Origin: Terriglobales bacterium | GTDB taxonomy: Bacteria > Acidobacteriota > Terriglobia > Terriglobales > Acidobacteriaceae | DNA: 64,000 bases | Direction of reading: 5' to 3' | Assembly: GCA_035601775.1 (NCBI GenBank) | Contig: DATNNO010000085.1 | Span: 190,826 to 254,825, forward strand | In this document: positions 4,286 through 22,473 of the stretch, one piece after another | How the letters are laid out: every line of letters begins with the position of its first letter | How positions within the stretch are numbered: position 1 is the first letter of the stretch | Notes under the pieces: model-generated | Told to the model about the DNA's origin: nothing | Databases searched by the model: none | The model's input: only the letters and a program-made list of their open reading frames with translations | Made by a program: the position numbers and the translations under genes

Positions 4286-5209
4286 ATGACCAACTTCTCC
4301 GTCCTTCGTTACCGGATGTATTTCGCCGCCAAAGACCTTGGTGTGCCGGATATGTTGCGCAGGTGGCCTTGGGCCGTACGAGCGCTTAGGCGGTTTAAGG
4401 CGCTGATCGAACGCTACGCGTTGCCGAACAAGCAGGTTTGGGTTCAGGCGCAAGCTGGGCTATCTCAGGGAATGTGGATGCGGCTTCGTCTTCCCGAGGA
4501 AGCACGCCACTGGCGCGGTGAACACGAAACCGAGGTGCAGGATGCAATTTGTGCCGGGGTTCGGCCGGGTACTGTTGTCTATGACATTGGCTCTCATGTA
4601 GGAACTGTCGCTCTTGGGGTCGCACGGCTCGTGGGTCAATTGGGCCGAGTGGTAGCTTTTGATGGTGATCCCGACAACACGGCGACGTTAGGGGAAAGCA
4701 GGCTGCGGAACCGACTGGAGGCGCGCCTTGCAGTTGTGCATGCCGCCGTCTGGTCTTACACCGCCAGTCATGGAATTCCTTTCCGGCGCGGCGGAACCCG
4801 AAGATCCCAGGGAGGAGTGGAAGCGAACGGACAACACCCCGTGGCGGGAACGGGCGAAATCATAAGTGTGCCAGCGGTCACGTTGGACGACTTCATCGCT
4901 GCTGGGGGACCCGTTCCGCAACTGGTCAAGATTGACGTGGAAGGCGGCGAGTACGAAGTCCTGCGCGGCGGCACCAACCTTTTCGCAAGTCAACGGCCAC
5001 TCATCATCGCCGAGGTCCACCATCAGCAGGCTGCCGAGCTGATTGGCGTTTGGCTGGGACAGTACCAGTATTGCGCACAGTGGAACATCCCAAGGGAGAA
5101 TTTTCCACGCTGCATGTTCGCTTGGCCAACTGAATATGATGGAGCAACATGGATGCAGAAGAGCGCCGGCTTCCGGAAGCCACGGCCCACGCCTCATTTT
5201 GTCTTGTAG
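4286..5209 (+). CDS. FkbM-family SAM-dependent methyltransferase
   Basis: VYDIGSHVGTVALGVARLVG (SAM-binding loop) and VKIDVEGGEYEVLRGG are characteristic of FkbM-type methyltransferases. The start is uncertain because in-frame Met codons lie downstream. Confidence 0.75.
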   Translation: MTNFSVLRYRMYFAAKDLGVPDMLRRWPWAVRALRRFKALIERYALPNKQVWVQAQAGLSQGMWMRLRLPEEARHWRGEHETEVQDAICAGVRPGTVVYDIGSHVGTVALGVARLVGQLGRVVAFDGDPDNTATLGESRLRNRLEARLAVVHAAVWSYTASHGIPFRRGGTRRSQGGVEANGQHPVAGTGEIISVPAVTLDDFIAAGGPVPQLVKIDVEGGEYEVLRGGTNLFASQRPLIIAEVHHQQAAELIGVWLGQYQYCAQWNIPRENFPRCMFAWPTEYDGATWMQKSAGFRKPRPTPHFVL

Positions 5210-5267
5210 ATTTGCCGCCCACCGGCTTCCCGACGATTGTGAAGTCGCTCCCTCAGCAGACCCCGCA

Positions 5268-6779
5268 TCAAGTGCAACTCGGTGCCGTCTCCGGCTGCAG
5301 TCTTTTCGCGTCCACGCTCGGTTTCGGCAGTTTGATGATGTTCTTCAACTGGCGATTGATCCACAGTTCAATCGGAAAATTGTAGAAGTCGTGGTTCAAA
5401 CGCACACGAGCGGGGTAAGCGGTGAGATGTTGAACCGCTTTCGCAAAGCGGCCGTGGCCGGTGGTCGCGATTGGAGCACGATCAAAGGCGATGCGCAGAT
5501 AATCCCGCATGGTTTGAACACGCTGATGGTCCCTGCCTTTGAGCCAGGGCAGAACTGTATAACGGGGGAAGTAGTCCACCCACCCCTCAAAGGACTTGGG
5601 AACTTCGATGCCCAGCTTTGCCGCCTGGTGAAAAATTGGCGAGCCCGGATAGGGCGTGAAAATGTTGGTCCAGAACTCTGCGCCGGGAAACTTTTGGCAG
5701 ATATCCATCATGAAGTTGACTGTCTCGCGTCGTTCTTTCGGACCCTCACCCGGGAAACCAAAAATGATATTGAAGGACGGGATGACCCCGGCTCTTATGC
5801 AACGCTCCGTCGATTGGTAGATGTCCCCTAGGATCTGAAAATCTTTGTTCATCAACTTCATTACGGTCGGGGAGGCGGTTTCGATGCCTTGGCAGATTTG
5901 GTGCAGCCCGGAGCGGCGAAGCAGGGTCAACTCTCCGATACTGAGACGCGCCGTCAGATTGGTCGTGGCTTGAACACTCCACTTAAAAGTGCTGCCTGCG
6001 CGAACCAATCCTTCCGCAATCTGCAACGACCGGTCAAGGTCGACCAGGAAATTATCGTCAGCCATCCACAGCAGATCGAGCCTGTAACGTCTGGTAAGCT
6101 CGATGGTTTCTTCAACGACCTGTTCGACCGGCAGTGCATTCCATTTGCGCCCGTATACTCCAGCATTGGTGCAGTAGAAACAATTGAAGGGGCAAGCGAG
6201 ACTGGAAACATACATGGTCCAGCGGCGCCCGCAAACTTTCTCATAAGCGTCGAAATCCGCAAGGTGATAGGCCTTGGCGGGCATTTTGTCGAGCGTCTTC
6301 AGAGGACGTTCAGGCGTGAGGTGCAGCTTGCCATCGCGCTTGAACCCAATGCCCAGGACGTCATCCAGAGGAGCGTCGTCACGCAGGCGGTCGGCAACCT
6401 CGAGCATACTGTCTTCGCCCTGTGCCCGAACGATGATGTCCACGTATGGCGCCTCGAGTGTCTGGCCGGGCAACAGGGACGGGTGCCATCCTCCCAGAAT
6501 CACGGGGAAGTCAGGATTCCACTTCTTGACTGCCTTGGCGACGTCCACCGTCTCGCGGATCATTGGCCCGGTCACGACGGAAATGCCCAGGCAGAGTGCA
6601 TCTTTTACTTCTTCCATGATCCGCTTCTTGTAGTCGGGGGTAATCGTCGAGTCGATAATCCGAATGTCGTATCCCGCATTCAATAGGGGAGTGGAGATAG
6701 CAAGGATGCCTAAGGGAGCCGTCGCCTCGATGCTTGAAAAAGAAGCGACAAAAAACACGATCTTCTTCGACGATTTCAC
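5268..6779 (-). CDS. B12-binding-domain radical SAM protein (class B rSAM), subfamily 1
   Basis: CxxxCxxC = CPFNCFYC. N-terminal Rossmann-like region (KKIVFFVASF ... GISVVTGP ... ILGGWHP). C-terminal tail NIFTPYPG ... LPWL ... YNFPIELW is shared with 7134..8645 and 12602..14065. GTG at 6779 was chosen by alignment with paralogues. The track ORF extends to a TTG at 6887. Confidence 0.85.
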   Translation of the reverse strand: MKSSKKIVFFVASFSSIEATAPLGILAISTPLLNAGYDIRIIDSTITPDYKKRIMEEVKDALCLGISVVTGPMIRETVDVAKAVKKWNPDFPVILGGWHPSLLPGQTLEAPYVDIIVRAQGEDSMLEVADRLRDDAPLDDVLGIGFKRDGKLHLTPERPLKTLDKMPAKAYHLADFDAYEKVCGRRWTMYVSSLACPFNCFYCTNAGVYGRKWNALPVEQVVEETIELTRRYRLDLLWMADDNFLVDLDRSLQIAEGLVRAGSTFKWSVQATTNLTARLSIGELTLLRRSGLHQICQGIETASPTVMKLMNKDFQILGDIYQSTERCIRAGVIPSFNIIFGFPGEGPKERRETVNFMMDICQKFPGAEFWTNIFTPYPGSPIFHQAAKLGIEVPKSFEGWVDYFPRYTVLPWLKGRDHQRVQTMRDYLRIAFDRAPIATTGHGRFAKAVQHLTAYPARVRLNHDFYNFPIELWINRQLKNIIKLPKPSVDAKRLQPETAPSCT

Positions 6780-6968
6780 GGGAGTGCCTTTCAGTGTTTC
6801 ATCTTGACCAGACCTAGGCGCTATTTGCCCTACGGCTTTGATCGAGCATTGGGTTCCAGTCGTGCATTGCTCAACCCGATCTCGCAACCCGGCCCGGGCA
6901 GATTACGGAACTTTGGGCGTAAGACTTGAAATCGAGTAGTCAAAAAGTACCAACCCGCCTCGCAGCGG

Positions 6969-7103
6969 TTGTCTCTAAATTGTCAAGATTCTGCAAAATC
7001 CACGTGACTATCGCCCTTTGTTGCTGTTGAATTTCTTAGTGCCTTCAAGAAAATGACAGATTTTTGACAATTGCATGACAAATGCCTTTCACCTGAATCC
7101 TAG
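6969..7103. promoter_or_regulatory. Bidirectional control region, copy A, between divergent rSAM genes
   Basis: Colinear with 14134..14269. The first 44 nt are 40/44 identical (TTGTCTCTAAATTGTCAAGATTCTGCAAAATCCACGTGACTATC). Both share TAGTGCC, three TGACA at 7054, 7065 and 7076 (11-bp phasing), mirrored TGTCT/TGTCA/TGCAA at 6970, 6981 and 6992, and a terminal TCCTAG. Confidence 0.55.
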
Positions 7104-7133
7104 CTTGGGTATTCCAGCGCGCACGCGATTGCA

Positions 7134-8645
7134 TTGAGCGAAATGCCTCGGAGCAGAAAAGTCGTACTGTTTTATCCGCCCTATGACGGACCTCCGTTGG
7201 GGGCGCCGTTGTGTCTGCTGGCGCTGGCATCCCCGTTGCTCGAGGCTGGTTTCGAAGTCAAGCTGGTGGACAATCTGATGTCACCCGACTTCGAGAATGT
7301 GATTCTGCGCGAGACAGAGGACGCGCTCTGTCTGGGCATTTCAATCCTCACCGGCCCGATGATCGGTTCCGCGATCAGGATAGCGAAAAAAGTGAGGCAG
7401 AATCGCCCGGAGCTGCCCATTGTGTTTGGCGGCTGGCATCCCACGCTGGTTCCAGAACAAACGCTCAAGCCGGATTTCGTGGATGCCATCGTGCGAGGCC
7501 AAGGCGAGCTGACTTTGCTCGAACTGGCCCAGCGACTGGCGGAGGGTCAGGACTTGCACGGGGTGCGGGGCCTATCGTTCAAAGATGACGCAGGCATGCA
7601 TCATGAGCCGGAGAGACCAGTTGCAAACATCAACGACCTGCCAGCCCCCGCGTATCACCTGGCGAATGTCGATGTTTATGCCTCTACCACTGGCGTACGG
7701 CAGCTGGCCTATGCGAGCAGTGTTGGTTGCCCCTACGCATGCAATTACTGTACGGACATGGTCTTTTACAAGCGCCGCTTCAACGCGTATCGCGCCGACC
7801 GGGTAGTCAGCGATCTGGCTGAGCTGGTTCCGCGCTACGGCATTGAAGAAGTCGCGCTTCTGGATTCCAATTTTCTGGTTGACATCAAACGCGCGGTCGC
7901 AATTGCCCGCGGGATCATCGCGAGCGGCGTCAAGTTCAAGTGGGATTTTCAAGCTTCAACTGACTTCGTGGCGAGGATGAGCGAAGACGATGTTCGGTTG
8001 CTGGGTGAGAGTGGCGTGAACCACATGGGATTTGGCACGGAATCGGCTTCCAAAGATGTGCTCGCTTTGATGAACAAGAAACACGAGCGCATAGAAGACA
8101 TGGTAGACACGGCCCGCAAGGCGGAGCTCGCGGGCATTCACGTTACTTTTAATGTCATTCTCGGATACCCGGGCGAAACCGAGGCGGATCGCCAACAAAC
8201 GTTCCGCATCATGAGCGAGATCGCCAAGCAATACTGGAATGTCAGCTTTTCTCCCAACATTTTCACTCCCTACCCCGGGATTCCAATATGGCCGCAACTG
8301 AAGGAGATGGGACTGCAGGAACCGCAGTCACTGGAGGAATGGGAGAATCTGGCCTTAGGATTTAATGTGCTTCCATGGTTGCAGGGGGAAGAACTGCGCC
8401 GGCTGCGACGCAGCCTCGAGTACTTCCTGCTAAACAACCAGATCCGCAAGGCGACAAAGAAGAGTGCTTGGTTGCGGCAGGGTTTTCGCCGGGCTCTCGG
8501 TGCGCCTGTACGCTGGCGCATCAACAAGAACCGCTACTCATTCCCTTGGGAACTCTGGGTTTCGCGTGCGGTAGAGCGGGTCACGACGCGGCGATCGCTC
8601 CTCACAGGCCAAAAACTAAGTGACCGAATGCAGGAAGTTTGCTGA
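7134..8645 (+). CDS. B12-binding-domain radical SAM protein (class B rSAM), subfamily 1
   Basis: CPYACNYC motif. N-terminal KVVLFYPPYDG ... GISILTGP ... VFGGWHP. C-terminal NIFTPYPG ... LPWL ... YSFPWELW. TTG at 7134 or ATG at 7143. Confidence 0.85.
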   Translation: MSEMPRSRKVVLFYPPYDGPPLGAPLCLLALASPLLEAGFEVKLVDNLMSPDFENVILRETEDALCLGISILTGPMIGSAIRIAKKVRQNRPELPIVFGGWHPTLVPEQTLKPDFVDAIVRGQGELTLLELAQRLAEGQDLHGVRGLSFKDDAGMHHEPERPVANINDLPAPAYHLANVDVYASTTGVRQLAYASSVGCPYACNYCTDMVFYKRRFNAYRADRVVSDLAELVPRYGIEEVALLDSNFLVDIKRAVAIARGIIASGVKFKWDFQASTDFVARMSEDDVRLLGESGVNHMGFGTESASKDVLALMNKKHERIEDMVDTARKAELAGIHVTFNVILGYPGETEADRQQTFRIMSEIAKQYWNVSFSPNIFTPYPGIPIWPQLKEMGLQEPQSLEEWENLALGFNVLPWLQGEELRRLRRSLEYFLLNNQIRKATKKSAWLRQGFRRALGAPVRWRINKNRYSFPWELWVSRAVERVTTRRSLLTGQKLSDRMQEVC

Positions 8646-8706
8646 TGTCGTGAGTTCGACCAAGCAGGCACAGTCCCAGGGTGCCTAACCCAGTCTTTTC
8701 CGTGTT

Positions 8707-10221
8707 TTAATTGTCCAACCTAGTCAGTGCTTCCCACGGCTTGATGCCAGCAGGTCCATTTGGCGCCAGGAGCGCCCAGCCTAACCCGGCGGAGTACAAT
8801 AACCCACCGCATGCAACCTGGAGGATCAGCGAGCCATAATGGTGGGCTGGAAACTCTTGTCTCATGAGCAAGAGTACGCCGGCGAGCGGCACACAGAGAC
8901 TCAAGGGCAGCATGTAAGCCTGGCTGAGAAAGGTGCTCAAAGGGATGTCCAGCTCGCGACGGACGTGCCTTGGAAGAAAAAACACGCAGGTAAACGTTAA
9001 TGGAATTGCCGTGCCGAGTGCGACACCGACAATTCCGAAATGAGATAGCAACCAGATGCTCAAAATCAAGTTGATTGCACCTTCGAGCAATAACACTGCG
9101 GCTAGCGTTCGGTGCCTGCCGATGCCGAGCAGGATTCTCGTTGAAGTCGACTGCGCCAGGTAGATGGTTTTGGGCACGGCCAAGATCACCAAAACAAAAT
9201 AGCTGGAAAGATACTTGGTGCCCACCCAAACTTCAATGATCGACCTGCCCAGGATCACCAGAATCGCGCAGAGAGGAAAGATTATGAGTGCACACGCGCG
9301 GTTTCCCGCCACAAGAGTCCGCCGCAGACGCACCACATCTCCAGTAGCATGCAGGTGGCTGGACATAGGAGTAAATATTACCGCCATGCTTCGGACAGCG
9401 GAACTTGAGTATTCGACCAGCTTTGATCCGATCGAGAAATAAGTGACTGCACTCGAAGAAAGCAGCGCTCCGATAAGGATCGGGTCCGATTGGAAGCGGA
9501 GTTTCTCCGCCAGAAGAATCACAAAAGCAAACGCACTATAGCTCAACATCTGCCAAAAGGAGTGACAATCGACATACCTCGGGCTTAACCTTAGAGGGCA
9601 AGCTCGGAAGGCCATCCCCATGAAAATCAGATAGCCGAAGAGGTTCATCCCGACCGTGATGGCCCCAATCGCCACCAACCCGCCCCCCTGGCTCAGCGCA
9701 ATCACGATCAGTAGGCCGCGGAGCAGCGTAACTCCGACCTGGCTAAGATGTAGCCAGGAGAACTTCTGCAACCCCTCGAGAACTGCGGCAAATACGCTTA
9801 GCGGAAAGGACAATGCCACACCGGCGCCCGCCAGCGCAAACAGTACCCGCGCCGATCCGAGAAAGCTAGGTGGTATTTTGAAAAGCGATTGCAGGTGAAA
9901 GAACCCCATTCCAGTAAGTAGCAACACAACCAACGACGCAATGGCATAGAAGGCGACGCTCGTGCTGAGAAAGCAGCTGAGTTTGTCTGCGTTCTGGGTT
10001 GCCGCAAACTTGGCAACATATCGCACGATGGAAGATCGGATCCCAAGATCGAGGAGTCCGTAATATCCGGTCAGGGAGAAGACCAGCACCCACAGGCTAA
10101 ATGCATCATCGCCCAGCCTATGGAGGATGAAGGGAGAAAGAAAGAAACCAACCACCGCGTGGACCAAAAGGCCCAGCCATGTGGCACTAACATTCTTCGC
10201 GGCTTGTTCCCTCAGACTCAT
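8707..10221 (-). CDS. MOP-superfamily oligo/polysaccharide flippase (Wzx-like)
   Basis: 504 aa with ~12-14 TM helices. N-terminal KNVSATWLGLLVHAVVGFFLSPFILHRLG is typical of polysaccharide biosynthesis (PST/MOP) flippases. Confidence 0.7.
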   Translation of the reverse strand: MSLREQAAKNVSATWLGLLVHAVVGFFLSPFILHRLGDDAFSLWVLVFSLTGYYGLLDLGIRSSIVRYVAKFAATQNADKLSCFLSTSVAFYAIASLVVLLLTGMGFFHLQSLFKIPPSFLGSARVLFALAGAGVALSFPLSVFAAVLEGLQKFSWLHLSQVGVTLLRGLLIVIALSQGGGLVAIGAITVGMNLFGYLIFMGMAFRACPLRLSPRYVDCHSFWQMLSYSAFAFVILLAEKLRFQSDPILIGALLSSSAVTYFSIGSKLVEYSSSAVRSMAVIFTPMSSHLHATGDVVRLRRTLVAGNRACALIIFPLCAILVILGRSIIEVWVGTKYLSSYFVLVILAVPKTIYLAQSTSTRILLGIGRHRTLAAVLLLEGAINLILSIWLLSHFGIVGVALGTAIPLTFTCVFFLPRHVRRELDIPLSTFLSQAYMLPLSLCVPLAGVLLLMRQEFPAHHYGSLILQVACGGLLYSAGLGWALLAPNGPAGIKPWEALTRLDN

Positions 10222-11671
10222 GCCAGTTCTTACGAGAAAACTCTAATCTGGTGGAGTCGCCGGGCAACTCGTCCGACCTCCATCGTGGTTCCTCCGAAGC
10301 AGCGTCGTGCTGCTCGCAGCTGAATGCTCGATTCTGGATTGTCAGCGCCGACGAGATCGGTCGCTGCCCAATTACGCCTGGCTGAGGGGCTAAATGTGCG
10401 GTCACTTTGTTCAGCCGCCGCCAACGTGGGATTTCCCAGAGGTATCGTAGCCCTGCCGTCACGTGGAAAAGAAGTCGGATGAGTACGCGCTCGAGTTGTC
10501 GCCCGCGTTCTCCGGAGTTTGTCGAAGATTTGGTTGTTATCGAGCGGGCCCTCCGAAAGAGTTGCTCCCAAGGCAACAGCCGAATCCGCATTAGGTGTCT
10601 CCTGGCCCTTGCGTCAGAAAGATATTGCCGATGAAGGAAGAGGATAACCTTGGCAACTGAGAACAGGCTGAATTGGTCAACTCGATTTTTCCCAAATACC
10701 CACGTCCGCGCATAGTTTTGAATCCAGATTCGAACTGCGGGACGAAGCTCCTCCGCCCAAATCCTTGAGGGCGACGGAAGGGGTGCTCCGTAAAAATGCG
10801 CGGATAGCTCGGTAACCACGACCACCATCTCGCGCAGCAGCGGGTCGCCTCCGATGCGTCGCTCGACGCGTCCCCATAGCAATGTGTCAGGTGCCCGCTG
10901 ACTGAGAAAGTATCCAATCTCGTACAGCCAGGACATTCGCACCCAGCCACTCAAAATGTGGTTGAAAGCGTGGATGACTTGAAGCAGGAATACGTCTTCC
11001 TCGGGAAGCGTACGAAAAGCCAATCCCTGCCATCGATGAGTTCTTATGTTGTCCACAGAGAACTCGGGTTCCGTCAAAGACACGCCATGGGAGTCGCTAT
11101 CCCAGAAGGCGAGACGCAATTCGACCGCATGAGGGGCGTGTGCCTCGTACTGCTCATCGGCAAGCGGCGGCATCCATGCTGATGCCATCAAGAATACGAA
11201 CTCGTTAGCGGAGGACTTTTTCAGGGAGTATCCAGCGTCCTCCAGTACGCGTCGCGCCACTGGCAGCGATTGATTATCAACCAAGTAGTCGAAGTCGCTC
11301 TGGTGCCGTAGAGACGCATCGGGACAGAACTGAGGGACAAGGGAAAGCCCCTTCACGGCCGCATATCTCACGCCGGCGCCATTGAATTTCTGGTTGAGAA
11401 AATCAAATTGACGCGCCATGTAGGCGACACGTCGCCGATTGGCAGTTAAGTTCTCCTCGAGGCGAGACAATGTCGACCTCGGCAGTATGTCGGTGGCGTT
11501 TGTGTCCTTGAGTTTTTGTAATAGATAAAGGATTAAGCCAGCATCGTGCAGCCATGTGAGTGCGTGCTCCCACTCACGGCGACGAAATCCCCTCAGTTCG
11601 TTTAGGCAGCCACTTGTCTTTCCTGAAAAACTCAGGAAATCGACGATGGCGTTGGGCAAAGTTTGCCTCAC
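10187..11671 (-). CDS. Uncharacterised nucleotidyltransferase-like protein (NTP_transf_5/PF14907-like)
   Basis: GTG start at 11671. GLSLVPQFCPDASLRHQSDFDYLV resembles the DxD-containing core of the NTP_transf_5 family. The 3-prime end overlaps the flippase start by 35 nt. Assignment is by eye only. Confidence 0.45.
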   Translation of the reverse strand: MRQTLPNAIVDFLSFSGKTSGCLNELRGFRRREWEHALTWLHDAGLILYLLQKLKDTNATDILPRSTLSRLEENLTANRRRVAYMARQFDFLNQKFNGAGVRYAAVKGLSLVPQFCPDASLRHQSDFDYLVDNQSLPVARRVLEDAGYSLKKSSANEFVFLMASAWMPPLADEQYEAHAPHAVELRLAFWDSDSHGVSLTEPEFSVDNIRTHRWQGLAFRTLPEEDVFLLQVIHAFNHILSGWVRMSWLYEIGYFLSQRAPDTLLWGRVERRIGGDPLLREMVVVVTELSAHFYGAPLPSPSRIWAEELRPAVRIWIQNYARTWVFGKNRVDQFSLFSVAKVILFLHRQYLSDARARRHLMRIRLLPWEQLFRRARSITTKSSTNSGERGRQLERVLIRLLFHVTAGLRYLWEIPRWRRLNKVTAHLAPQPGVIGQRPISSALTIQNRAFSCEQHDAASEEPRWRSDELPGDSTRLEFSRKNWHESEGTSREEC

Positions 11672-11822
11672 GACCCGACCTGGACTGGTCCTTCCGCAGA
11701 GAATCGAGCGGGAAATATTGTTCTAAGCTGTGAGGACAACGTCAATGGCAACAGCAGTTCTCGTTGCTGAGAAGCTGGGTTCTCCCTAGCGGACGCCATC
11801 GTGAAAGTGATAACCAGAGTTC

Positions 11823-12605
11823 TCACCGCCCACCTCGCAACCTGGTCTCCGCCGAGGTACGTCTAAACTGGCAGACTAGAACCGCGGGCAGTTGGCAGGC
11901 CCGTGTGAACAAATGGCTTTTCCCCGCTCGGGCGAAGATCGGCTTTTCCGGTTCTCCAAGGCAGAGTGGGAGGTGTGTAAGGCACTCGAACCCTCCCGAG
12001 TAGAAAGCTCGGATAATTTCTTCAGCCGTGCGAGGCAACATCTCGATTTGCATGGCACTGCGGGAATCACGGAAGCCAGTTCGCCATCCTCGCGCGTATG
12101 CCTCGGGGTGGAGATCACTGACAAAAACATCCGCTCCAGCCTTCATCACCCGTGCCAGCTCGCGCACCATCGCTCCCAGGTCACGGATGTGTCCGAGAGC
12201 GAACGAACAGACAACAAGGTCGAAAACCTCTGATCGGAATGGAAGCGCGAGGCAATCGGCCTGTGCCAGCCGTCCCGCTATCGCGGCCTTTTTTCCGGCA
12301 ACCCGAAGCATCGCAGCCGACAAATCAACGCCGATTCCTACACCGGCACCCCGCCCCGTAAGCTTCTCGAGCCACCGGCCGGTACCGCACGCGAGATCAA
12401 GCACGTGTCTGCCACTCAAGTCGGGAAGGTGCGCCGCGAGCTTACGTTCTTCGAGATTGAGTAACGGGTTGGGAGCCTGGTCATAGGTTGGTGCCCAACG
12501 CTCATAACCTTCCGCGACGGAAACATAAGGAGCAACCGAAAAATCGGCTCTACAATTCGATGATCCGATATCGCCGGATTCCGACGTGCTGGAGATCTGG
12601 TTCAC
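11823..12605 (-). CDS. Class I SAM-dependent methyltransferase
   Basis: VLDLACGTGRWLEKL (motif I) and FDLVVCSFALGHI. Start set to GTG at 12605, which overlaps the upstream rSAM stop as GTGA (12602-12605). The track ORF runs on to 12878 inside the rSAM gene. Confidence 0.8.
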   Translation of the reverse strand: MNQISSTSESGDIGSSNCRADFSVAPYVSVAEGYERWAPTYDQAPNPLLNLEERKLAAHLPDLSGRHVLDLACGTGRWLEKLTGRGAGVGIGVDLSAAMLRVAGKKAAIAGRLAQADCLALPFRSEVFDLVVCSFALGHIRDLGAMVRELARVMKAGADVFVSDLHPEAYARGWRTGFRDSRSAMQIEMLPRTAEEIIRAFYSGGFECLTHLPLCLGEPEKPIFARAGKSHLFTRACQLPAVLVCQFRRTSAETRLRGGR

Positions 12606-14065
12606 AGGCTTTCCGCCTTCGGCTTCCGCAGGTCGATGAACTCCTGGGTCCATTTCAGTTCCAGGGGCGCGGCATAGACGCCTAGCCGATATCGCCAACT
12701 GCTCAGGGCTTTGAGCACGACGCGGCCCCAGTTGGGCAAACGGATGTCCTGCACCGTCGGCCACCTGGAGGACACCACCAATTCGAAGTTGTCGATCAAC
12801 TGCTTGGTGCCAGGCCGCAGCCAGGGTGTTTGGGGATCCTTCTGAGTGGCGAATCGCTGCCAAGAATCCGTTGCCCACTCATCCGGGGTGGTGGGAAACT
12901 GAAACTTGTCCTCGACATCTCCATACATACGCGCACGCTGCGGAACCGGAGTGTAATGCTCGACGATGATCTCTGAATCTGGATTCAGCCGCTTCAGTTG
13001 GCGGATGAATTTGATGCACTCCCGAGTGTCGGCTTCGGGATCCTTTGGATTTCCGAAGATGATGGAGAATTCGGGAATGATGCCGAAGCGCCGTATTCGC
13101 GAAGCTAGAGCGAGAGTGTCTTCGGCGCAGAGGTCCTTATTCATCTCCTTTAGGTTTTCGTTCGATCCCGATTCGGCGCCGAAGAAAATCATGGCGCAGC
13201 CGGCGCGGCGAATGGCTTCGAACGTGGCGTCCGAGTACTTCATCATGATGTCGGTACGGCCTTCGCACCACCATCGCATCTTGAGCGGGGCCATCCGGTC
13301 CGCCAGTTCACGGGTGTGGTCCTCGCGCAGGAAAAAATTGTTGTCGTAAAACTGAATGGCATCGACGCCATAGGTTTGGGCGAGGTGGCGCAGCATGCCT
13401 TCGGTCCGAGCCGGCGATTCCATCTTTTCGCGGCTGCCGGAAAAGTTGACTACTCCGCAAAAATTGCAGCGAAAAGGGCACCCAATGCTAGCCTGGTGAA
13501 CCGCGGTGCGGCGGCCTAGGAACGTAGGCAGGAAATATCTCTCTGCCGGAATGCGATGGTATGGGTACCAGGGAAAATCGTCGGGACTTCGCATGGGACG
13601 CTCAGGATTGTGACGAGGAGTTCCGTCAGCGTCCTTGTAAGAGAGCCCGTTGATACTCTTGAGATCGCGATGTCCACGAATTGCTTCCAGCAAGTCGAGC
13701 AAAGTCTGCTCGCCCTGGCCGCGGACCGCGTAATCTACGTAGCCTGCGTTGAGAGCGGCAGCCGTATAGTTGGTAGCGAAGTAGCCTCCCCAAACGATCG
13801 GCAGGTGCGGGAATCGTGCTCGAACCTCGCGGCAGCTTGCGACAGCACCGACCGTCTGCGGTCCCGGCATGACCGTAACTGCCAGGAGTTCAATCCCATG
13901 CTCCCTGATCAGCGCGACCAGACTCTCGGTGGGATTTGGATCGATGTTGCCATCGACGATGGTGTATTCCTCTTTGCCCTCGAGCACTGCCGCGATCGCT
14001 AAGATCGACAACGGGAGGCGGCGGTTACGAGGCTTGGTTGCCTTCGGGTTATACAAGACGATCAT
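12602..14065 (-). CDS. B12-binding-domain radical SAM protein (class B rSAM), subfamily 1
   Basis: CPFRCNFC motif. N-terminal MIVLYNPKA ... VTVMPGPQ ... VWGGYF. The C-terminal extension ends in W-Y-LG ... LELKW, analogous to the paralogues. Confidence 0.85.
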   Translation of the reverse strand: MIVLYNPKATKPRNRRLPLSILAIAAVLEGKEEYTIVDGNIDPNPTESLVALIREHGIELLAVTVMPGPQTVGAVASCREVRARFPHLPIVWGGYFATNYTAAALNAGYVDYAVRGQGEQTLLDLLEAIRGHRDLKSINGLSYKDADGTPRHNPERPMRSPDDFPWYPYHRIPAERYFLPTFLGRRTAVHQASIGCPFRCNFCGVVNFSGSREKMESPARTEGMLRHLAQTYGVDAIQFYDNNFFLREDHTRELADRMAPLKMRWWCEGRTDIMMKYSDATFEAIRRAGCAMIFFGAESGSNENLKEMNKDLCAEDTLALASRIRRFGIIPEFSIIFGNPKDPEADTRECIKFIRQLKRLNPDSEIIVEHYTPVPQRARMYGDVEDKFQFPTTPDEWATDSWQRFATQKDPQTPWLRPGTKQLIDNFELVVSSRWPTVQDIRLPNWGRVVLKALSSWRYRLGVYAAPLELKWTQEFIDLRKPKAESL

Positions 14066-14133
14066 GTGCTAGGTGTCACCCCGAGACTGGAGACTGGTTG
14101 GCGCAGTTAAGGTACCAATCGGAGGGAGGGGAC

Positions 14134-14269
14134 TTGTCTCTAATTTGTCAACATTCTGCAAATTCCCCGTGACTATCCATCGATTTTTCGGTCTCCATCT
14201 CATAGTGCCACAAAGAAGTGACACAAATTTGACAATCTGCTGACAAAACACCTGTCCCATCTGTCCTAG
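14134..14269. promoter_or_regulatory. Bidirectional control region, copy B, between divergent rSAM genes
   Basis: Paralogue of 6969..7103 in the same orientation. TGTCT/TGTCA/TGCAA at 14135, 14146 and 14157. TGACA at 14219, 14230 and 14241. Terminal TCCTAG at 14264-14269. Confidence 0.55.
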
Positions 14270-14471
14270 ATTTGCTTACTCCTCTTGCATAGGTGCGGTA
14301 GATGCTGCGAAGCAATCGACCGCAATGGAGACGCGAGAGTATATTGGCGAGTGTGGTTTGGCGATCCCGCGCCTCTTAGAAGACGACGCCTCCTGACGAG
14401 CGCGGAGCTGAGCGAGCGTACGTAGGAAGTTTGCTGATATTTTTACTACCGACGAGCGAGGCGCAACTAGC

Positions 14472-15983
14472 GTGGCTGACGTTCTGCTAACCCATTCCTA
14501 TCACCTTTATTACGACCGCAAGCAGACGCGGAAAATGCAGCCTTATCCTCCGCTCGGCACGCTTTATGCGGCTGCCTTGCTGCGAAGCGCGGGCCTATCC
14601 GTCGCGTTGTTCGACACCATGCTCAACGATCCCGAGCAAGGGTTTCAGGCTGCTCTCGACGAGCACCGACCCCGGGTCGTCGTGGTCTACGAGGACAACT
14701 TTAACTTTCTTACGAAGATGTGCCTCACCCGCATGCGGGAAGTTGCCTATCACATTCTTGAGGTCTCGCAGAAGGCCGGGACCGCGGTCCTGGTAAATGG
14801 CTCTGATGCTTCCGATCACGCTCTGGAGTACCTTCGAAAAGGCTTCCGCTCCGTGCTGCTGGGCGAGGCGGAATGGACATTGTTAGAAGCAATCCAACAT
14901 CTCTTGAAAGGGGACAGCCAGGAAATAGCACAGACTCCCGGGCTGGCATATTTGGATGACGAGACTCAAGAACTAGTCCGGACGCCACATCGCCCGCTTA
15001 CGCGCGATCTCGACCTCTTGTCATTTCCTGCCCGCGATCTGATCGATGCGGCTCAATACCGCACTGCATGGAAAACTGCTCACGGCTATTTCTCCCTGAA
15101 TATTGTCGCGAGCCGCGGTTGCCCCTACCGCTGCAATTGGTGCGCAAAGCCCATTTATGGCGACTCATTCGCCGTGCGGTCGGCATGGAGCGTTGCCGAA
15201 GAGATGAGGCGGCTGAAATACGACTTCGGCGCTGAGCATCTGTGGTTCGCCGATGACATCTTCGGCCTCCGAGCGAAATGGGTCCGCGAACTTGCTGTGG
15301 AGGTCGAGAGGCTAGACGCTGCCGTACCTTTCAAGATGCAGTCCCGAGTTGATTTGATGACCGTCGACACCGTACGCGCTTTGCGCCGGGCCGGGTGCGC
15401 CGAAGTCTGGTTAGGTGTCGAGTCGGGGTCCCAGAAGATTCTGGATGCAATGGATAAGGGAACTCGAGTGGAACAGATCGCGAAAGCACGGGAGAATTTG
15501 CGGAACGAGGGGATTCGGGCATGCTATTTCCTTCAGTTTGGATACCAAGGCGAGACCTGGGAGGACATTCAGAAGACGGTGAAACTCGTGCAAGATACGC
15601 GTCCCGACGATGTAGGAGTCTCGGTTTCGTACCCGCTCCCGGGAACAAAATTCTTCGACCGAGTGCAGGCACAGTTGGGCGACAAGACCAATTGGTCGGA
15701 TAGCGAAGACCTTTCCATGATGTTCCAGGGCGCGTACACAGACGAGTTCTATCGCGCCTTGCACGACGCTTTGCATGCCCAAGTTGATTCTTGGCATTCA
15801 CACAAAGCGCAGGCCACCGGGAAGGACCTGCGTGCAAACCTTGACCCAGACGAACTGTGGAAGCGAGTCGTGCAGCTTGAGAAATCGTGCCGTAGCGCTC
15901 GCCCCACCGTTGTGCCGAGTCTTGCAAGCCAACAACTGGTGCAATTGCAGGCAGGCCCTGGCCTGACGTGCGGGGATGACTAG
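14472..15983 (+). CDS. B12-binding-domain radical SAM protein (class B rSAM), subfamily 2
   Basis: GTG start. CPYRCNWC motif. N-terminus VLLTHSYHLYYDRKQTRKMQPYPPLGTLYAAALLRSAGLSV is paralogous to 16006..17400. Confidence 0.85.
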   Translation: MADVLLTHSYHLYYDRKQTRKMQPYPPLGTLYAAALLRSAGLSVALFDTMLNDPEQGFQAALDEHRPRVVVVYEDNFNFLTKMCLTRMREVAYHILEVSQKAGTAVLVNGSDASDHALEYLRKGFRSVLLGEAEWTLLEAIQHLLKGDSQEIAQTPGLAYLDDETQELVRTPHRPLTRDLDLLSFPARDLIDAAQYRTAWKTAHGYFSLNIVASRGCPYRCNWCAKPIYGDSFAVRSAWSVAEEMRRLKYDFGAEHLWFADDIFGLRAKWVRELAVEVERLDAAVPFKMQSRVDLMTVDTVRALRRAGCAEVWLGVESGSQKILDAMDKGTRVEQIAKARENLRNEGIRACYFLQFGYQGETWEDIQKTVKLVQDTRPDDVGVSVSYPLPGTKFFDRVQAQLGDKTNWSDSEDLSMMFQGAYTDEFYRALHDALHAQVDSWHSHKAQATGKDLRANLDPDELWKRVVQLEKSCRSARPTVVPSLASQQLVQLQAGPGLTCGDD

Positions 15984-16005
15984 ATCCCGCGGGCCGAATC
16001 GAAAC

Positions 16006-17400
16006 ATGGACATACTTCTCACTCACGGTTACTTCCTTTACGAGGATCCTAAGGAGCTTCAAATCATGAAGCCCTATCCTCCACTGGGGATCCTGTACAT
16101 CTGCGCGCATCTGCGGAGCAAGGGCCTGAGTGTTGAGGTGTTCGATTCCACTTTCTCATCGCGCCAGCAACTATTTGAACTGCTCCAGCAGGGCCCTCCA
16201 TCCGTGCTCGGCATCTACGCAAATCTGATGACCCGACCCAACGTCGTCGAGATTCTGCGTGTCGCAAAGGATGCAGGCTGGAAGACGATGGTTGGTGGCC
16301 CGGAGCCCAGTGCTTATATCGACGAGTACCTCGAAGCGGGTGCAGACGTCATTGTGATCGGTGAGGGAGAAGTCACGCTGGAGGAATTGGTACCGGTGTT
16401 GAATTCGCATTCCGTCGACGCCTTACAGCACGTCAACGGCATTGCTTTCCGGGCTGCGGACGGAACCATCATCCGCACGCCTCCGCGAGATCAACTCCGA
16501 GACATCGATGCTCAGCCTTGGCCGGCGCGCGAATCGATCGATTTGACGCGCTATCTGACAGTCTGGCGCGAGCACCACGGCATGGGGTCGGTGTCGCTGA
16601 TCACGGCTCGCGGTTGCCCCTATCATTGCCGCTGGTGCAGCCACGAAGTTTTTGGCAAAACCCACCGCCGCAGAAAGCCGGCGTCGGTGGCCGACGAACT
16701 TGAGTGGCTAATTGGTCGATACCAACCCGAAATGGCTTGGATGGCCGATGACGTCTTCACCATTCACCACGGTTGGCTCTTTCAGTACGCCGCCGAACTT
16801 AAGCGGCGGGGACTGAAGTTGCCTTTTGAATGTATTTCGCGCGCCGACCGGTTGAGTCCTCAAGTTGTCGCAACCCTCGCTGAAATGGGATGCTTTCGCG
16901 TGTGGATCGGCTCCGAGAGCGGCTCGCAGCGCATCTTGGATGCTATGGAACGGGGCGTCACCGCTGAAGAAGTACGATCCGCGGTAGCTATGTGCAAATC
17001 GCACGGAATCAAAACTGGAATGTTTCTGATGTGGGGCTACGAGGGCGAGGAGCTTGGCGATATCGAAGCGACTATTGAGCACGTGAAGAAAACTGATCCC
17101 GATATCTTCTTCACCACCGTTGCATATCCGATCAAAGGCACTCCCTACTTCGCGGAAGTTGCAGACCGCGTTGAGAACCTCAAGCCGTGGAACGTGGGCT
17201 CGGACAGGGAGGTTCGCATTCGTAACCGGCATTCACGTCAGTTTTACAGCTTTGCCGATAAGTTGCTTCGCAGCGAAGTTGAGCTGGAACGCCTCCGGAA
17301 CGAACCTATTGTTGACGGATACGCCATTGCGGAATTGCAATCCAAAGTCTCTGATTTCCGCGCTGGCTTGACAGCGGCTGCCCATGAGATGGAGACCTGA
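16006..17400 (+). CDS. B12-binding-domain radical SAM protein (class B rSAM), subfamily 2
   Basis: CPYHCRWC motif. N-terminus MDILLTHGYFLYEDPKELQIMKPYPPLGILYICAHLRSKGLSV. ATG at 16006 is preferred over the track start at 15976, which overlaps the upstream gene. Confidence 0.85.
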   Translation: MDILLTHGYFLYEDPKELQIMKPYPPLGILYICAHLRSKGLSVEVFDSTFSSRQQLFELLQQGPPSVLGIYANLMTRPNVVEILRVAKDAGWKTMVGGPEPSAYIDEYLEAGADVIVIGEGEVTLEELVPVLNSHSVDALQHVNGIAFRAADGTIIRTPPRDQLRDIDAQPWPARESIDLTRYLTVWREHHGMGSVSLITARGCPYHCRWCSHEVFGKTHRRRKPASVADELEWLIGRYQPEMAWMADDVFTIHHGWLFQYAAELKRRGLKLPFECISRADRLSPQVVATLAEMGCFRVWIGSESGSQRILDAMERGVTAEEVRSAVAMCKSHGIKTGMFLMWGYEGEELGDIEATIEHVKKTDPDIFFTTVAYPIKGTPYFAEVADRVENLKPWNVGSDREVRIRNRHSRQFYSFADKLLRSEVELERLRNEPIVDGYAIAELQSKVSDFRAGLTAAAHEMET

Positions 17401-17404
17401 GCCC

Positions 17405-18232
17405 ATGGCAGTCGCTCAAGCGCAAATTTATGCAGCCCCGTTCGACGCTATCGCCGAGCGCTACGACGAGACTTTTACCACGTCGAAGATCGGCCGAGCC
17501 CAACGCGCATCGGTGTGGAAAGAACTTGAGAGAGTATTTCGCCCTGATGATCGTGTTCTTGAAATTGGCTGTGGCACGGGTGTAGATGCGTGTTTTCTGG
17601 CAGAGCATGGCGTGACGGTGGTTGCCTGCGACAACTCACCTCAAATGATCACAGTGACGACTCGCAGAGTCAAAGAAAACGGAAAAGATAGTTTGGTGTT
17701 TCCGCATTTGCTCGCGGCCGAAGACATAGCCAGCTTGCAAAACGGCGACTCCTTCGATGGAGCATTCTCGAACTTCGGGGCGCTCAATTGTGTTCAGGAT
17801 CTCCAGCGATTCGCTAGAGACTTGGCGATTCTTCTCAAGCCCGGTGCGACGGCTTTGCTCTGTTGGATGGGCCCGTGCTGCTTATGGGAAATCATGTGGT
17901 ATCTCGCTCAGGGAAAACCGGGCAAAGCCCTCCGACGATTCCGTCGCGCGGGCGTGACCGCGCGACTGGCAGAGGGAGCAACCGTTCGGGTGCATTACCC
18001 TTCGGTACGGTTACTCGCACACATCTTCGCACCTCAATTTCGCCTCGTGTCCATCAAAGGGATTGGTGTTTCGGTGCCGCCGAGCTACCTCGAAACTTGG
18101 GCAAATCGGTTTCCAGGTCTATTCGGTTTGAGTATGCGAGCCGATTCACTCTTGGGCCGCTGCCCCGGCATGCGCGCGGTTGCCGACCATATCCTGCTGG
18201 AATTCCGTCGTGAAAATCTTGAGTGGCGATAA
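17405..18232 (+). CDS. Class I SAM-dependent methyltransferase
   Basis: VLEIGCGTGVDACFLAEHG (motif I) and FDGAFSNFGALNCV. ATG at 17405, 5 nt after the upstream stop. Confidence 0.8.
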   Translation: MAVAQAQIYAAPFDAIAERYDETFTTSKIGRAQRASVWKELERVFRPDDRVLEIGCGTGVDACFLAEHGVTVVACDNSPQMITVTTRRVKENGKDSLVFPHLLAAEDIASLQNGDSFDGAFSNFGALNCVQDLQRFARDLAILLKPGATALLCWMGPCCLWEIMWYLAQGKPGKALRRFRRAGVTARLAEGATVRVHYPSVRLLAHIFAPQFRLVSIKGIGVSVPPSYLETWANRFPGLFGLSMRADSLLGRCPGMRAVADHILLEFRRENLEWR

Positions 18233-19287
18233 TGAGCACTCTCGTATCCATTTCGGTCGCCCGCGAATCGACTGGCAGCGACGCTTCTGACCTTGCCGCA
18301 CACCAACTCCGTGCCATGCCGGTCGTAGTGATTTCGCCGCACAACCAGTGCAATTGCCGTTGTGTGATGTGCGACATCTGGCGGATTCGCGATCCCAAGG
18401 AAATCACGCCCACAGATCTCGAACGACAATTGACTTCATTTCGCGAACTTCGTGTCCGCTGGGTTGTGTTTACCGGCGGCGAACCACAGATGAATGGCCA
18501 GTTGAGTTCTTTGGCGCAGATGCTCCGCGCCGAGGGAATCCGCGTAACCATGCTTACCGCCGGGCTGTTGTTGGAATCTCACGCCGAATCCATCGCTGCG
18601 AACATCGACGATGTGATCGTCTCCCTGGACGGGCCACCTACGGTGCACGACCACATACGGCGTGTTCCCCACGCTTTTGAACGAATAACAGCCGGGGTTA
18701 CGGCATTGCGAAAGTTCCGGCCCGACATCGAGGTGCGGGCGCGCTGCACCGTCCAGAAAGCAAATCACCGCTCGCTCTGCGAGGTAGTGCAATCGGCGAA
18801 GGAAATAGGCTTGAACTCGATTTCGTTTCTCGCAGCCGATCTCACCTCGGACGCCTTCAATCGCCCCCAGGGTTGGTTGCCCAAACGCCAAGACCGGGTC
18901 GCTTTGAAGGCTGAGGAAGTCGATGCGCTGGAGGCAGAAGTCGAGCGGCTCATCAGCGAGCACCAGATCGACCTGGATTCGGGGTTTGTGGTCGAATCAG
19001 CCGGAAAATTGCGCCGTATCGTGCTCCACTTCCGGGCCCACCTTGGCCAGGCACAGCACGTCGCACCACGCTGCAACGCGCCTTGGGTCTCCGCTGTGAT
19101 TGAGGCGTCGGGTGAGGTCCGTCCGTGCTTTTTCCATCCTTCGTTCGGGAATGTTCACAATCAAACCTTGCACCAGATCGTGAATGGTCCCGAAGCGCTG
19201 AAGTTTCGAGCGAACCTTGATGTTGCAACCAACCCAATCTGCCGCCGATGCGTGTGCTCTCTGCACATTCCGCGCCACGAAGAATGA
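18232..19287 (+). CDS. Radical SAM protein with Cys-rich SPASM/twitch-like C-terminal domain
   Basis: CNCRCVMC (CxxxCxxC). C-terminal cysteines CNAPW ... RPCFF ... CRRCVCSL. ATG at 18232 overlaps the upstream stop as TAATG. Confidence 0.75.
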   Translation: MSTLVSISVARESTGSDASDLAAHQLRAMPVVVISPHNQCNCRCVMCDIWRIRDPKEITPTDLERQLTSFRELRVRWVVFTGGEPQMNGQLSSLAQMLRAEGIRVTMLTAGLLLESHAESIAANIDDVIVSLDGPPTVHDHIRRVPHAFERITAGVTALRKFRPDIEVRARCTVQKANHRSLCEVVQSAKEIGLNSISFLAADLTSDAFNRPQGWLPKRQDRVALKAEEVDALEAEVERLISEHQIDLDSGFVVESAGKLRRIVLHFRAHLGQAQHVAPRCNAPWVSAVIEASGEVRPCFFHPSFGNVHNQTLHQIVNGPEALKFRANLDVATNPICRRCVCSLHIPRHEE

Positions 19288-20029: not shown

Positions 20030-20161
20030 ATACCACCCGCTTTCTGTCCCTCGCAGTTGCGACGGCTGTCGCCTTTCGGGACGGTTGTTACAAGATAGAC
20101 TTGTCGAGTTACCACGTATTGCATGAGACGTGGCAGATTGGACCTGAACTTCGCATAGGTC

Positions 20162-20959: not shown

Positions 20960-20978
20960 GAACCGTTCTCCTCTCTCC

Positions 20979-22328: not shown

Positions 22329-22473
22329 GTCCTTCTCCTTAACTTCTTGGGCAGACTGTCCCTGCCGCCGGTACCGAATGCAAAGCTTCGCCCCCCGGCG
22401 CACTAACGGCAGGTAACCCCAAGCGTGCTGTCGCAGTGACAATTTAAAGATAAAAAAGTAAGGAGTCCGAGGT

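Follow-up and report, generated by a model that had tools for sequence, protein, structure and literature searches.

The DNA analyzed here, a 64,000-nucleotide stretch (the window) at positions 190,826 to 254,825 of the forward strand of contig DATNNO010000085.1 (GenBank assembly GCA_035601775.1, Terriglobales bacterium, Acidobacteriota), carries a conserved gene cluster built around five B12-binding radical S-adenosylmethionine (SAM) enzymes, which we designate rA1, rA2, rA3, rB1 and rB2. They are accompanied by a sixth radical SAM enzyme with a SPASM domain, class I methyltransferases (MT1 and MT2), a nucleotidyltransferase-fold protein of the NTP_transf_5 family (PF14907; here NTP5), and a pair of HprK-like kinases (HprA and HprB) encoded just beyond the window. 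On balance, we favor the view that these genes form a radical tailoring cassette within a lipid-linked, Wzx/Wzy-type pathway for a cell-envelope polysaccharide or glycoconjugate in uncultured Terriglobia. This reading is based on the recurrent, lineage-independent association of the cluster with Wzx/Wzy genes, on the flippase, GT87 glycosyltransferase and FkbM-family methyltransferase encoded in the window, and on the GT2, AsnB and PMT_2 genes that lie just upstream of the cluster in the same organism. Its novelty lies in joining to a polysaccharide locus a set of radical enzymes without precedent, together with an orphan kinase/nucleotidyltransferase module. A more tentative, though possible, extension is that the pathway makes an unprecedented sugar unit or phospho-linked substituent, remodeled by all six radical SAM enzymes (multiple C-methylations, ring contraction, carbocycle formation), with a kinase–NTP5 module that lasso peptides and polysaccharides share.

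The association with glycan assembly comes from a set of distant loci, comprising the contexts of NTP5 relatives of 28–36% identity and those recovered by scanning metagenomes with an alignment built from relatives of this kind (10 sequences; a 27-sequence alignment was too diverse to yield patterns). These loci keep the same radical SAM orthologues, with identities of 64–82% for rA1, 55–70% for rA2, 58–70% for rB1, 63–75% for rB2 and 63–81% for rA3, and the radical SAM genes adjoin an HprA/HprB pair, or a fused HprAB, that is followed by NTP5. NTP5 in turn leads into a same-strand run of Bac_transf, Wzz, Wzx, Wzy_C and family 4 glycosyltransferase (GT4) genes in L079/L083, L113, L119, L134, L136 and L142, and partially so in L125, L127 and L131. 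The arrangement in L079/L083 is rB1-rA2-rA1-GT87/PD40-Wzy_C, divergent from HprA-HprB-NTP5-Bac_transf-Wzz-Wzx-Wzy; elsewhere the divergent arm is often rA2-rA1-GT87/PD40-Wzy_C, to which L119 adds a nucleotide-sugar epimerase/dehydratase that is NAD-dependent according to Pfam. L082 has the HprAB fusion followed by NTP5-Bac_transf-Wzz-Wzx-Wzy_C, with no radical SAM gene in view, and other variants encode an Acyl_transf_3 protein (L073) or a sulfotransferase (L080 and L137). Among 39 metagenome loci of at least 7 kb, an HprK-like gene accompanies NTP5 in 36, a glycan gene is present in 24, radical SAM genes are present in 17, and glycan and radical SAM genes occur together in 10, all four counts being lower bounds since many of the loci are incomplete.

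With Wzx/Wzy-dependent loci for O-antigen, exopolysaccharide (EPS) and capsule, the window cluster shares a MOP/Wzx-like flippase, glycosyltransferases and an FkbM-type methyltransferase, and the related loci join the full set (Bac_transf, Wzz-like, Wzx, Wzy_C, several GT4s and an epimerase/dehydratase of the short-chain dehydrogenase/reductase (SDR) type) to the kinase–NTP5 module. Among the curated family matches and papers that we found, none describes such a locus with five B12-binding radical SAM enzymes and a SPASM radical SAM enzyme, or with an HprK-fold pair and NTP_transf_5. Neither the window cluster nor the compact form described below has genes for Bac_transf, Wzy and Wzz; in L079, L119, L136 and others such genes stand beside radical SAM orthologues. 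A preliminary description of this DNA had suggested a pathway acting on a 'flippase-handled lipid-linked glycan'; the distant operons with Wzx/Wzy genes lend this comparative support, although the flippase itself is accessory. A separate, conventional-looking EPS locus, recognized by eye from N-terminal sequences, occupies window positions 52992–64000, about 35 kb from the cluster. It encodes a Wzz/GumC-like protein of 750 amino acids (aa), a Wza-like protein, a GT4, a Bac_transf-like protein (58986–60314), an acyltransferase and a Polysacc_synt-like protein (61588–63090), and could supply the initiating transferase that is missing from the cluster.

Pfam and NCBIfam scans recovered every gene previously named in the cluster, but the boundaries drawn for it were wrong: the unit reaches left to window position 7 and past the window start, and takes in the GT87–PD40 gene, an ICMT/PEMT-like methyltransferase gene, and the two HprK/PEPCK-fold paralogues upstream of position 1. 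In the window's organism the upstream order is tRNA-Leu, a NicO-like transporter gene, a TIGR03118 secreted-protein gene, the two kinase genes and the ICMT/PEMT-like gene. A compact form, found in one clade with unrelated flanking genes (L070), consists of 13 core genes in two divergent operons, rA1-rA3-MT1-NTP5-HprA-HprB-ICMT and rA2-rB1-rB2-MT2-MT3-SPASM. The core comprises the five B12-binding radical SAM enzymes, the SPASM/twitch radical SAM enzyme, two or three class I methyltransferases, the ICMT/PEMT-like methyltransferase, the two HprK/PEPCK-fold P-loop kinases and NTP_transf_5. Because the compact form lacks flippase, GT87 and FkbM genes (it also lacks any transporter, peptidase or small open reading frame (ORF)), we regard these three as accessory, and the earlier inclusion of the flippase and FkbM in the block does not hold for the core. 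Across lineages the core travels with a variable set of genes for GT87–PD40, MOP flippase, FkbM, GT4, Bac_transf, Wzz, Wzy_C, Acyl_transf_3, sulfotransferase and SDR epimerase/dehydratase. GT87–PD40 also occurs in the distant loci L073, L079 and L119, and the ICMT-like gene, besides its place in the compact core, belongs to an HprK–NTP5–ICMT trio in L073 and L080.

When a single genome from each GTDB species was scanned, with NTP5 motifs as the anchor, 60 loci were recovered, all from metagenome-assembled genomes (MAGs) of uncultured Acidobacteriota (Terriglobia) bar one labeled Ca. Aquilonibacter. When their ORFs were assigned to the window proteins, the cluster proved to be held by 51 species-level Terriglobia MAG loci; the hosts come from soil, peat and palsa, and the homologues carry the names Candidatus Sulfotelmatobacter or Terriglobales. 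Exact-sequence matches to the window are on metagenome contigs from soil and peat. rA3 and NTP5 are present in all 51 loci, rB1 and MT1 in 49, rB2 in 48, rA1 and rA2 in 47, MT2 in 43, the SPASM enzyme in 41, GT87–PD40 in 37, the flippase in 21 and FkbM in 9, while the ICMT-like gene was detected in 20 despite limited flanks. With the further metagenome loci, these data establish that synteny extends well past a single strain. G+C content is even across the window cluster (0.55–0.58), which gives no sign of recent transfer. The label 'orphan cluster' given in the preliminary description is fair: in the NCBIfam scan no cluster gene family was covered by a curated family, none of the radical SAM enzymes reached a cut-off (best scores 117–154 bits against cut-offs of 281–775), and no characterized pathway lays claim to the genes through such a family. 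Literature searches turned up nothing on the cluster, on PF14907 in such a context or on B12-binding radical SAM enzymes in a Wzx/Wzy locus, beyond passing mention of PF14907, NTP_transf_5, HprK-related kinases or the cluster. A defense-system reading was rejected, as PADLOC returned generic radical SAM or P-loop similarity alone and nothing specific.

Two paralogous P-loop proteins of ~340 aa recur with the cluster even though they lie outside the window. HprA has sub-threshold NCBIfam matches to HprK_rel_A (47 bits), HprK_rel_B (44 bits) and ScmC (24 bits), against cut-offs of 200, 200 and 125, and its AlphaFold model (mean predicted local distance difference test, pLDDT, 85) has the PEP-carboxykinase/HprK fold. 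The two kinases are fused as a single protein of ~670–690 aa in L082, L119 and L136. The NTP5 gene shares a strand run with rA3 and MT1, two genes that overlap by 4 nt. The protein belongs to a small subfamily, for which 1,307 representatives were counted at E≤1e-3 in a set of 1.84 billion. Its motif G108-S110...D126-x-D128 is nearly invariant in alignments, and its model weakly resembles ANT(2''), LnuA and MenT, with Foldseek matches that include the ANT(2'') entries 5cfs and 4xje. In some Terriglobia MAGs, solitary NTP5 paralogues of 37–51% identity (L026, L029, L036, L055, L063 and L066) have no radical SAM or kinase neighbors, and their context is uninformative.

The characterized precedent is a lasso-peptide system in which PsmK, of the HprK family, phosphorylates the terminal Ser of the peptide and PsmN, an 'uncharacterised NTP transferase' that needs its DxD motif, adds one or two hexoses to the PsmK-installed phosphate; templates reported for PsmN were the ANT(2'') structures 5cfs and 4xje (PMC6993621). 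Like PsmK/PsmN and PadeK of the pseudomycoidin and paeninodin systems, the cluster pairs an HprK-family kinase with an NTP-transferase-fold protein, and NTP5 keeps the G-S...D-x-D motif and matches the templates used for PsmN. It differs from the lasso systems in having no lasso cyclase, leader peptidase, precursor or recognition element (RRE) for RiPPs (peptides made on the ribosome and modified after translation), and in the position of the module within polysaccharide operons. Given this precedent, the motif and the ANT(2'')-like model, we suggest by analogy that kinase and NTP5 may together perform a 'phosphorylate, then nucleotidylate or glycosylate' step. NTP5 is directly followed by a GT4 gene in L077 (8754–11248), L085 and L097 (10001–12465), and P0389, a metagenome protein of 841 aa, is an NTP_transf_5–GT4 fusion; both the adjacency and the fusion fit the proposed step, and the fusion, as a Rosetta-stone link, suggests a role in glycosyl transfer for the orphan PF14907 family. 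NCBIfam defines an 'HPr-rel-A system' of HprK-related kinases A and B, a PqqD-family chaperone and a PF14907 nucleotidyltransferase, and NCBI annotates HprK_rel_A, HprK_rel_B and ScmC as parts of peptide-modification systems. The cluster shares two HprK-like paralogues and a PF14907 protein with the HPr-rel-A system and the SynChlorMet cassette of ScmC, but all of its scores are far below cut-off and it has no PqqD gene. In L080 (1341–5819) and L137 a sulfotransferase gene precedes HprK–NTP5–ICMT beside rA1; a trio of kinase, nucleotidyltransferase and sulfotransferase has been reported around some lasso-peptide clusters.

All five B12-type paralogues match PF04055 above the Pfam cut-off and four match PF02310 likewise, rB1 reaching 29.6 against 32.1 bits; the N-terminal region of rB1 aligns to BchE and TIGR04295. 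The B12-binding domains assign the five, from sequence, to the class B radical SAM superfamily, with cobalamin binding predicted. AprD4 has a B12-binding domain yet no cobalamin, and class B enzymes share no strict motif at the sequence level. The CxxxCxxC strings noted earlier are all present, their three cysteines being invariant in 43–48 orthologues each. An earlier division into two subfamilies stands in that rA1 and rA2 are 39% and rB1 and rB2 35% identical, as against 22–28% for other pairs, but rA3 is a loose 'A' member (27–28% identity to the other two) in which the motif of the supposedly shared C-terminal tail is degenerate. PF13282/DUF4070, a domain that had been put forward for checking, was not detected at E≤0.01.

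Conservation separates the radical SAM enzymes from their neighbors. In 41 distant loci, defined by an NTP5 less than 60% identical to that of the window, median identities to the window proteins are 90% for rA1, 85% for rA3, 79% for rB2, 76% for rB1 and 75% for rA2, followed by 68% for the SPASM enzyme, 63% for MT1 and MT2, 59% for ICMT, 53% for HprA and GT87, and 46% for NTP5 and HprB. Since each paralogue is strongly conserved while the paralogues are only 22–39% identical to one another, five distinct functions appear to be kept; that five deeply diverged paralogues each seem to be under strong purifying selection speaks for five separate reactions, all of them needed, on one unchanging substrate.

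What those reactions may be is approached through distant relatives. HpnJ and BchE are the top NCBIfam matches of the B12-type enzymes, rB1 matching HpnJ best (126 bits against a cut-off of 578), but among the named families (BchE, HpnJ, HpnR, PhpK, ApyD, TIGR03975, TIGR04072, TIGR04295, TIGR04014 and others) none is matched at its curated cut-off. With all matches 4- to 10-fold below the cut-offs, no function can be transferred from curated families. The statement that this is not an hpn or bch locus is borne out, as HpnJ, HpnR, HpnP and BchE all score below cut-off and hpn or bch neighbors are lacking. The closest solved relatives are TokK (58 bits) and AprD4 for rA2, and 9CCB, the glutamine C-methyltransferase QCMT (76 bits), and AprD4 for rB2. 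The cluster enzymes share the B12-binding Rossmann and radical SAM core architecture with class B enzymes that act on sugars or lipid-linked sugars (GenK/GenD1, MoeK5, Fom3 and HpnJ, the last of which acts on a lipid-linked sugar), and AprD4 and BlsE, which with BtrN and DesII are sugar-acting radical SAM enzymes, are among the cluster's closest solved relatives. In contrast to all of these pathways, five paralogues occur in one locus. C-methylation, which had been proposed as the cluster's chemistry, is an analogy: no feature we tested separates methylases from class B enzymes that remodel rings, dehydrate or cross-link.

The SPASM enzyme had been described as having a Cys-rich SPASM/twitch-like tail, and its PF13186 match (49 bits, cut-off 21.5) agrees. 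In an orthologue alignment the invariant cysteines are 40/44/47 plus 42, 172, 281, 299, 337, 340 and 342. Measured against the reference pattern CX9-15GX4C ... CX2CX5CX3C ... C, the enzyme has C281-X13-G-X4-C299, but its second block is CxxCxC (337, 340, 342), and the domain may be of either the full SPASM or the twitch type. Six invariant extra cysteines would, judged from sequence, suffice for at least one auxiliary cluster. Its closest solved relative is the nucleoside-sugar decarboxylase BlsE. The three methyltransferases listed previously, two of class I and one of the FkbM family, are confirmed (Table 1), and the start/stop overlaps described at GTGA (12605–12602, minus strand) and TAATG (18230–18234) are real.

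Table 1. Features of the cluster and its conserved non-coding element (window coordinates unless stated otherwise)
Feature	Position	Strand	Basis or remark
HprA and HprB, two HprK/PEPCK-fold P-loop kinase genes (core)	L067 7038–9133		immediately upstream of window position 1
ICMT/PEMT-like polytopic membrane methyltransferase (core)	7..699	+	Pfam PEMT (E=1.2e-10) and ICMT
GT87 (GT-C fold) fused to PD40/Tricorn-type beta-propeller (frequent accessory)	1994..4210	+	GT87 94 bits, PD40 69 bits
FkbM-family methyltransferase (accessory)	4286..5209	+	TIGR01444 90.5 bits, cut-off 37.7
rA1, B12-binding radical SAM (most conserved gene)	5268..6779	-	PF02310 + PF04055
Conserved element upstream of rA1	6946..6998	-	TTTTGCAGAAT-TTGACAA-TTAGAGACAA, ~12 nt, TTGGTAC
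rA2, B12-binding radical SAM	7134..8645	+	PF02310 + PF04055
MOP-family (Wzx-like) flippase (accessory)	8707..10221	-	Polysacc_synt_3 and Polysacc_synt above cut-off; NCBIfam WZX_like match weak
NTP5, NTP_transf_5 nucleotidyltransferase-fold protein (core)	10187..11671	-	Pfam PF14907, 119 bits
MT1, class I SAM methyltransferase (core)	11823..12605	-	Pfam; start overlaps rA3 stop
rA3, B12-binding radical SAM	12602..14065	-	PF02310 + PF04055
Second copy of the element, ~45 nt upstream of rA3 start codon	14111..14163	-	same pattern, ~53 nt
rB1, B12-binding radical SAM	14472..15983	+	PF02310 (below cut-off) + PF04055
rB2, B12-binding radical SAM	16006..17400	+	PF02310 + PF04055
MT2, class I SAM methyltransferase	17384..18232	+	Pfam; start may instead be 17405
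Radical SAM with partial SPASM/twitch domain, without N-terminal RRE	18232..19287	+	Radical_SAM; SPASM PF13186

We propose that the pathway would begin in the cytoplasm, where the kinase pair may add phosphate to a hydroxyl group, either on a sugar or on a lipid-linked intermediate, and that NTP_transf_5, often with an adjacent or fused GT4, would turn this phosphate into a nucleotide-activated or phospho-glycosyl group, as PsmK/PsmN set a precedent for. The six radical SAM enzymes could then carry out successive radical C-H functionalizations on unactivated carbons of the sugar unit, the options including C-methylation, ring contraction, dehydration and decarboxylation (compare GenK, HpnJ, AprD4 and BlsE), and the SAM methyltransferases might add O-, N- or carboxyl-methyl groups. 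The MOP flippase would flip the product, and the GT-C enzyme (GT87–PD40) and Wzy_C-type enzymes would act on the outer face of the membrane. Several observations weigh against this scheme. In the compact form L070, genes for a glycosyltransferase, a flippase and an initiating transferase are all lacking in cis, the window cluster itself has no Bac_transf, Wzz or Wzy, and one lineage has lipid-gene neighbors, namely genes for a fatty acyl-AMP ligase (FAAL), desaturases and a ketosynthase (KS). We know of no published B12-binding radical SAM enzyme in a polysaccharide locus, the analogies with sugar substrates being drawn from antibiotics and hopanoids; pairs of an HprK-like kinase and NTP_transf_5 have been characterized on a peptide only; and rB2's closest solved relative, QCMT, modifies protein. 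Gene adjacency, moreover, is not proof of a shared pathway, and the radical SAM chemistries named here are proposals by analogy.

An unlikely alternative is that the substrate is a peptide or protein, so that in a RiPP-like pathway an unlinked peptide would be phosphorylated by the HprK-like kinases, decorated by NTP5, C-methylated by the B12-type enzymes and cross-linked or epimerized by the SPASM enzyme, with the glycan genes serving to glycosylate or export it. The sole characterized pair of HprK-family kinase and NTP transferase acts on a lasso peptide (PMC6993621), HprA weakly matches HprK_rel_A, HprK_rel_B and ScmC, the SPASM domain is present, rB2 is nearest to a protein Gln C-methyltransferase (QCMT) among solved structures, the RiPP methylases ApyD and TIGR03975 are among the sub-threshold matches, and the PD40/Tricorn propeller fused to GT87 might serve to hold a peptide. 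The HprK_rel, ScmC and RiPP radical SAM matches are all, however, far below cut-off, the kinase–NTP5 module is followed on the same strand by Bac_transf-Wzz-Wzx-Wzy, and radical SAM conservation of 75–90% would be unusual for RiPP tailoring enzymes. C-methylation by B12-binding radical SAM enzymes has precedents in bottromycin, polytheonamide and methyl-coenzyme M reductase, and the cluster resembles multi-enzyme RiPP pathways of this type (bottromycin BotRMT1-3, polytheonamide PoyB/C, ApyD) in grouping class B enzymes with class I methyltransferases; it differs in its polysaccharide context and in having no precursor, RRE, peptidase or YcaO/LanM-type enzyme. The preliminary description had likewise seen no PqqD/RRE, peptidase or precursor gene. 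Pfam and NCBIfam found no PqqD, peptidase or ABC exporter domain in the cluster genes, though cryptic RREs may escape such scans; the intergenic space is too small to leave room for a PqqD gene, and the SPASM enzyme, whose cluster motif is preceded by only ~36 residues, has no N-terminal RRE. Clustering of 18–130-aa ORFs outside the assigned genes revealed no conserved small ORF in or beside the cluster in ~50 loci, and no precursor, RRE or peptidase was seen in ~50 MAG loci and the 39 metagenome loci of at least 7 kb. An intergenic 'peptide', ILQNVDNLET, turned out to be the conserved DNA element described below, and other small-ORF families are alternative frames of the HprK genes. A lasso reading of the upstream Asn synthase gene and a 47-aa ORF was also discarded: the synthase (L067 376–2298; TIGR01536, 456 bits against a cut-off of 267, GATase domains intact) is a genuine glutamine-hydrolyzing AsnB and is not conserved with the cluster.

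Tailoring of a membrane lipid or a glycolipid aglycone also seems improbable to us. The B12-type enzymes would here methylate, cyclize or couple alkyl chains, with iso-diabolic acid or a branched glycerol dialkyl glycerol tetraether (brGDGT) as target, and several features fit: an ICMT/PEMT-type membrane methyltransferase in the core, hosts that are Terriglobia MAGs from peat, palsa and soil, a compact form without glycan genes, very high conservation, as for a core physiological trait, and, in L072–L076, a cluster that abuts FAAL–desaturase–acyl carrier protein (ACP)–desaturase–KS/ACP genes. Acidobacteria have no mss homologues and the enzymes that make their membrane-spanning lipids are not known (PMC13159169); the same is reported of the enzymes for brGDGT methylation and ring formation, whose archaeal counterparts are B12-binding radical SAM enzymes (GrsA/B, GDGT methylases). 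Yet no locus seen has glycerolipid or ether-lipid genes, and no Tes-like enzyme was seen, each cluster enzyme of the B12 or SPASM type having a single CxxxCxxC against two in Tes. Lipid-gene adjacency is confined to one lineage whereas glycan genes occur in every lineage sampled, and kinase, nucleotidyltransferase and GT4 modules would not be expected for alkyl-chain chemistry. All matches, moreover, are from uncultured MAGs and none from the cultured producers of iso-diabolic acid, which a scan anchored on NTP5 could miss. A third possibility, which we consider very unlikely, concerns the kinase–NTP5 module alone: a protein Ser kinase and a nucleoside monophosphate transferase would control polymerization or export, in the manner of bacterial tyrosine (BY) kinases, while the radical SAM enzymes and methyltransferases would still tailor a glycan. 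HprK/P is itself a protein kinase, the HprA model has the HprK/PEPCK fold, and the module heads Bac_transf-Wzz-Wzx-Wzy operons whose Wzz-like protein shows no annotated kinase domain. A tailoring role is favored instead by the location of NTP5, which shares a strand run with rA3 and MT1, by its fusion or adjacency to GT4 in several lineages, by the precedent of PsmK and PsmN as tailoring enzymes, and by the compact form, where the trio still accompanies the radical SAM genes and would find no assembly machinery to control.

Terriglobia rank with the most abundant bacteria of soil and peat, and the polymers of their envelopes influence soil aggregation, tolerance to desiccation and carbon storage. 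Radical SAM enzymes that remain at 75–90% identity while their neighbors drift to 45–60% point to an important cobalamin-dependent envelope trait, which probably also depends on low oxygen. If radical tailoring of a lipid-linked glycan is the correct reading, class B radical SAM chemistry would extend from antibiotics, hopanoids and peptides to structural polysaccharides, and the orphan families PF14907 and HprK-related kinases would gain a function. Were the lipid alternative true instead, the cluster would be relevant to an old question about branched tetraether lipids, which serve as palaeoclimate proxies: which organisms make them, and by what route.

A conserved non-coding element lies upstream of both rA1 and rA3 (Table 1), with 77 copies in 47 loci and two per locus in 30. 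Its position suggests that the rA1 and rA3 operons are co-regulated, and it probably serves as a promoter or regulator site common to both. Scanning window positions 1–24000 against Rfam by E-value found no RNA family, riboswitch or other. Judged by eye, the GG/GC spacing of a sigma-54 site fits only one of the two copies, and this assignment was set aside; a scan for sigma-70 promoters and terminators gave fewer sites than shuffled sequence, and neither the sigma-54 nor the sigma-70 consensus matches the element cleanly.

Several genes at the margins of the cluster deserve mention. Two candidates for membership were rejected, a YVTN/PQQ-type beta-propeller gene between the ICMT-like and GT87 genes (881–1822), which does not occur in the other 50 loci and is probably a strain-specific insertion, and the cytochrome c and CarboxypepD_reg genes at 19298–22442, which are missing from the compact form. 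The latter region holds a dihaem cytochrome c, a 487-aa CSACH-motif protein without Pfam match and a CarboxypepD_reg protein, and secreted proteins with cytochrome c domains recur beside the cluster (L097 4810–6222, L136 3489–4967 and L119 19433–20671); a sister-clade counterpart, in which cytochrome c is fused to a DUF5777 membrane beta-barrel, shares only the haem domain with the window proteins. The L072–L076 lineage (L073 1–6487; one member labeled Ca. Eisenbacteria) also encodes a 1181-aa KS–ACP protein, a second NTP_transf_5 paralogue and an Acyl_transf_3 protein, neighbors that hint at a glycolipid or lipid link not shown by other lineages. On the kinase side, the same tRNA-Leu(TAA) gene borders the cluster in two genomes (L067 4317–4405 and L005 20989–21077) whose NTP5 proteins are 55% identical. 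Between this tRNA gene and the cluster, L067, the locus of the window's organism, encodes a NicO-like protein of the nickel/cobalt transporter family (4547–5356; a weak match of 20 bits) with a His-rich loop, which is not conserved with the cluster and may bear on cobalt supply for the B12 enzymes.

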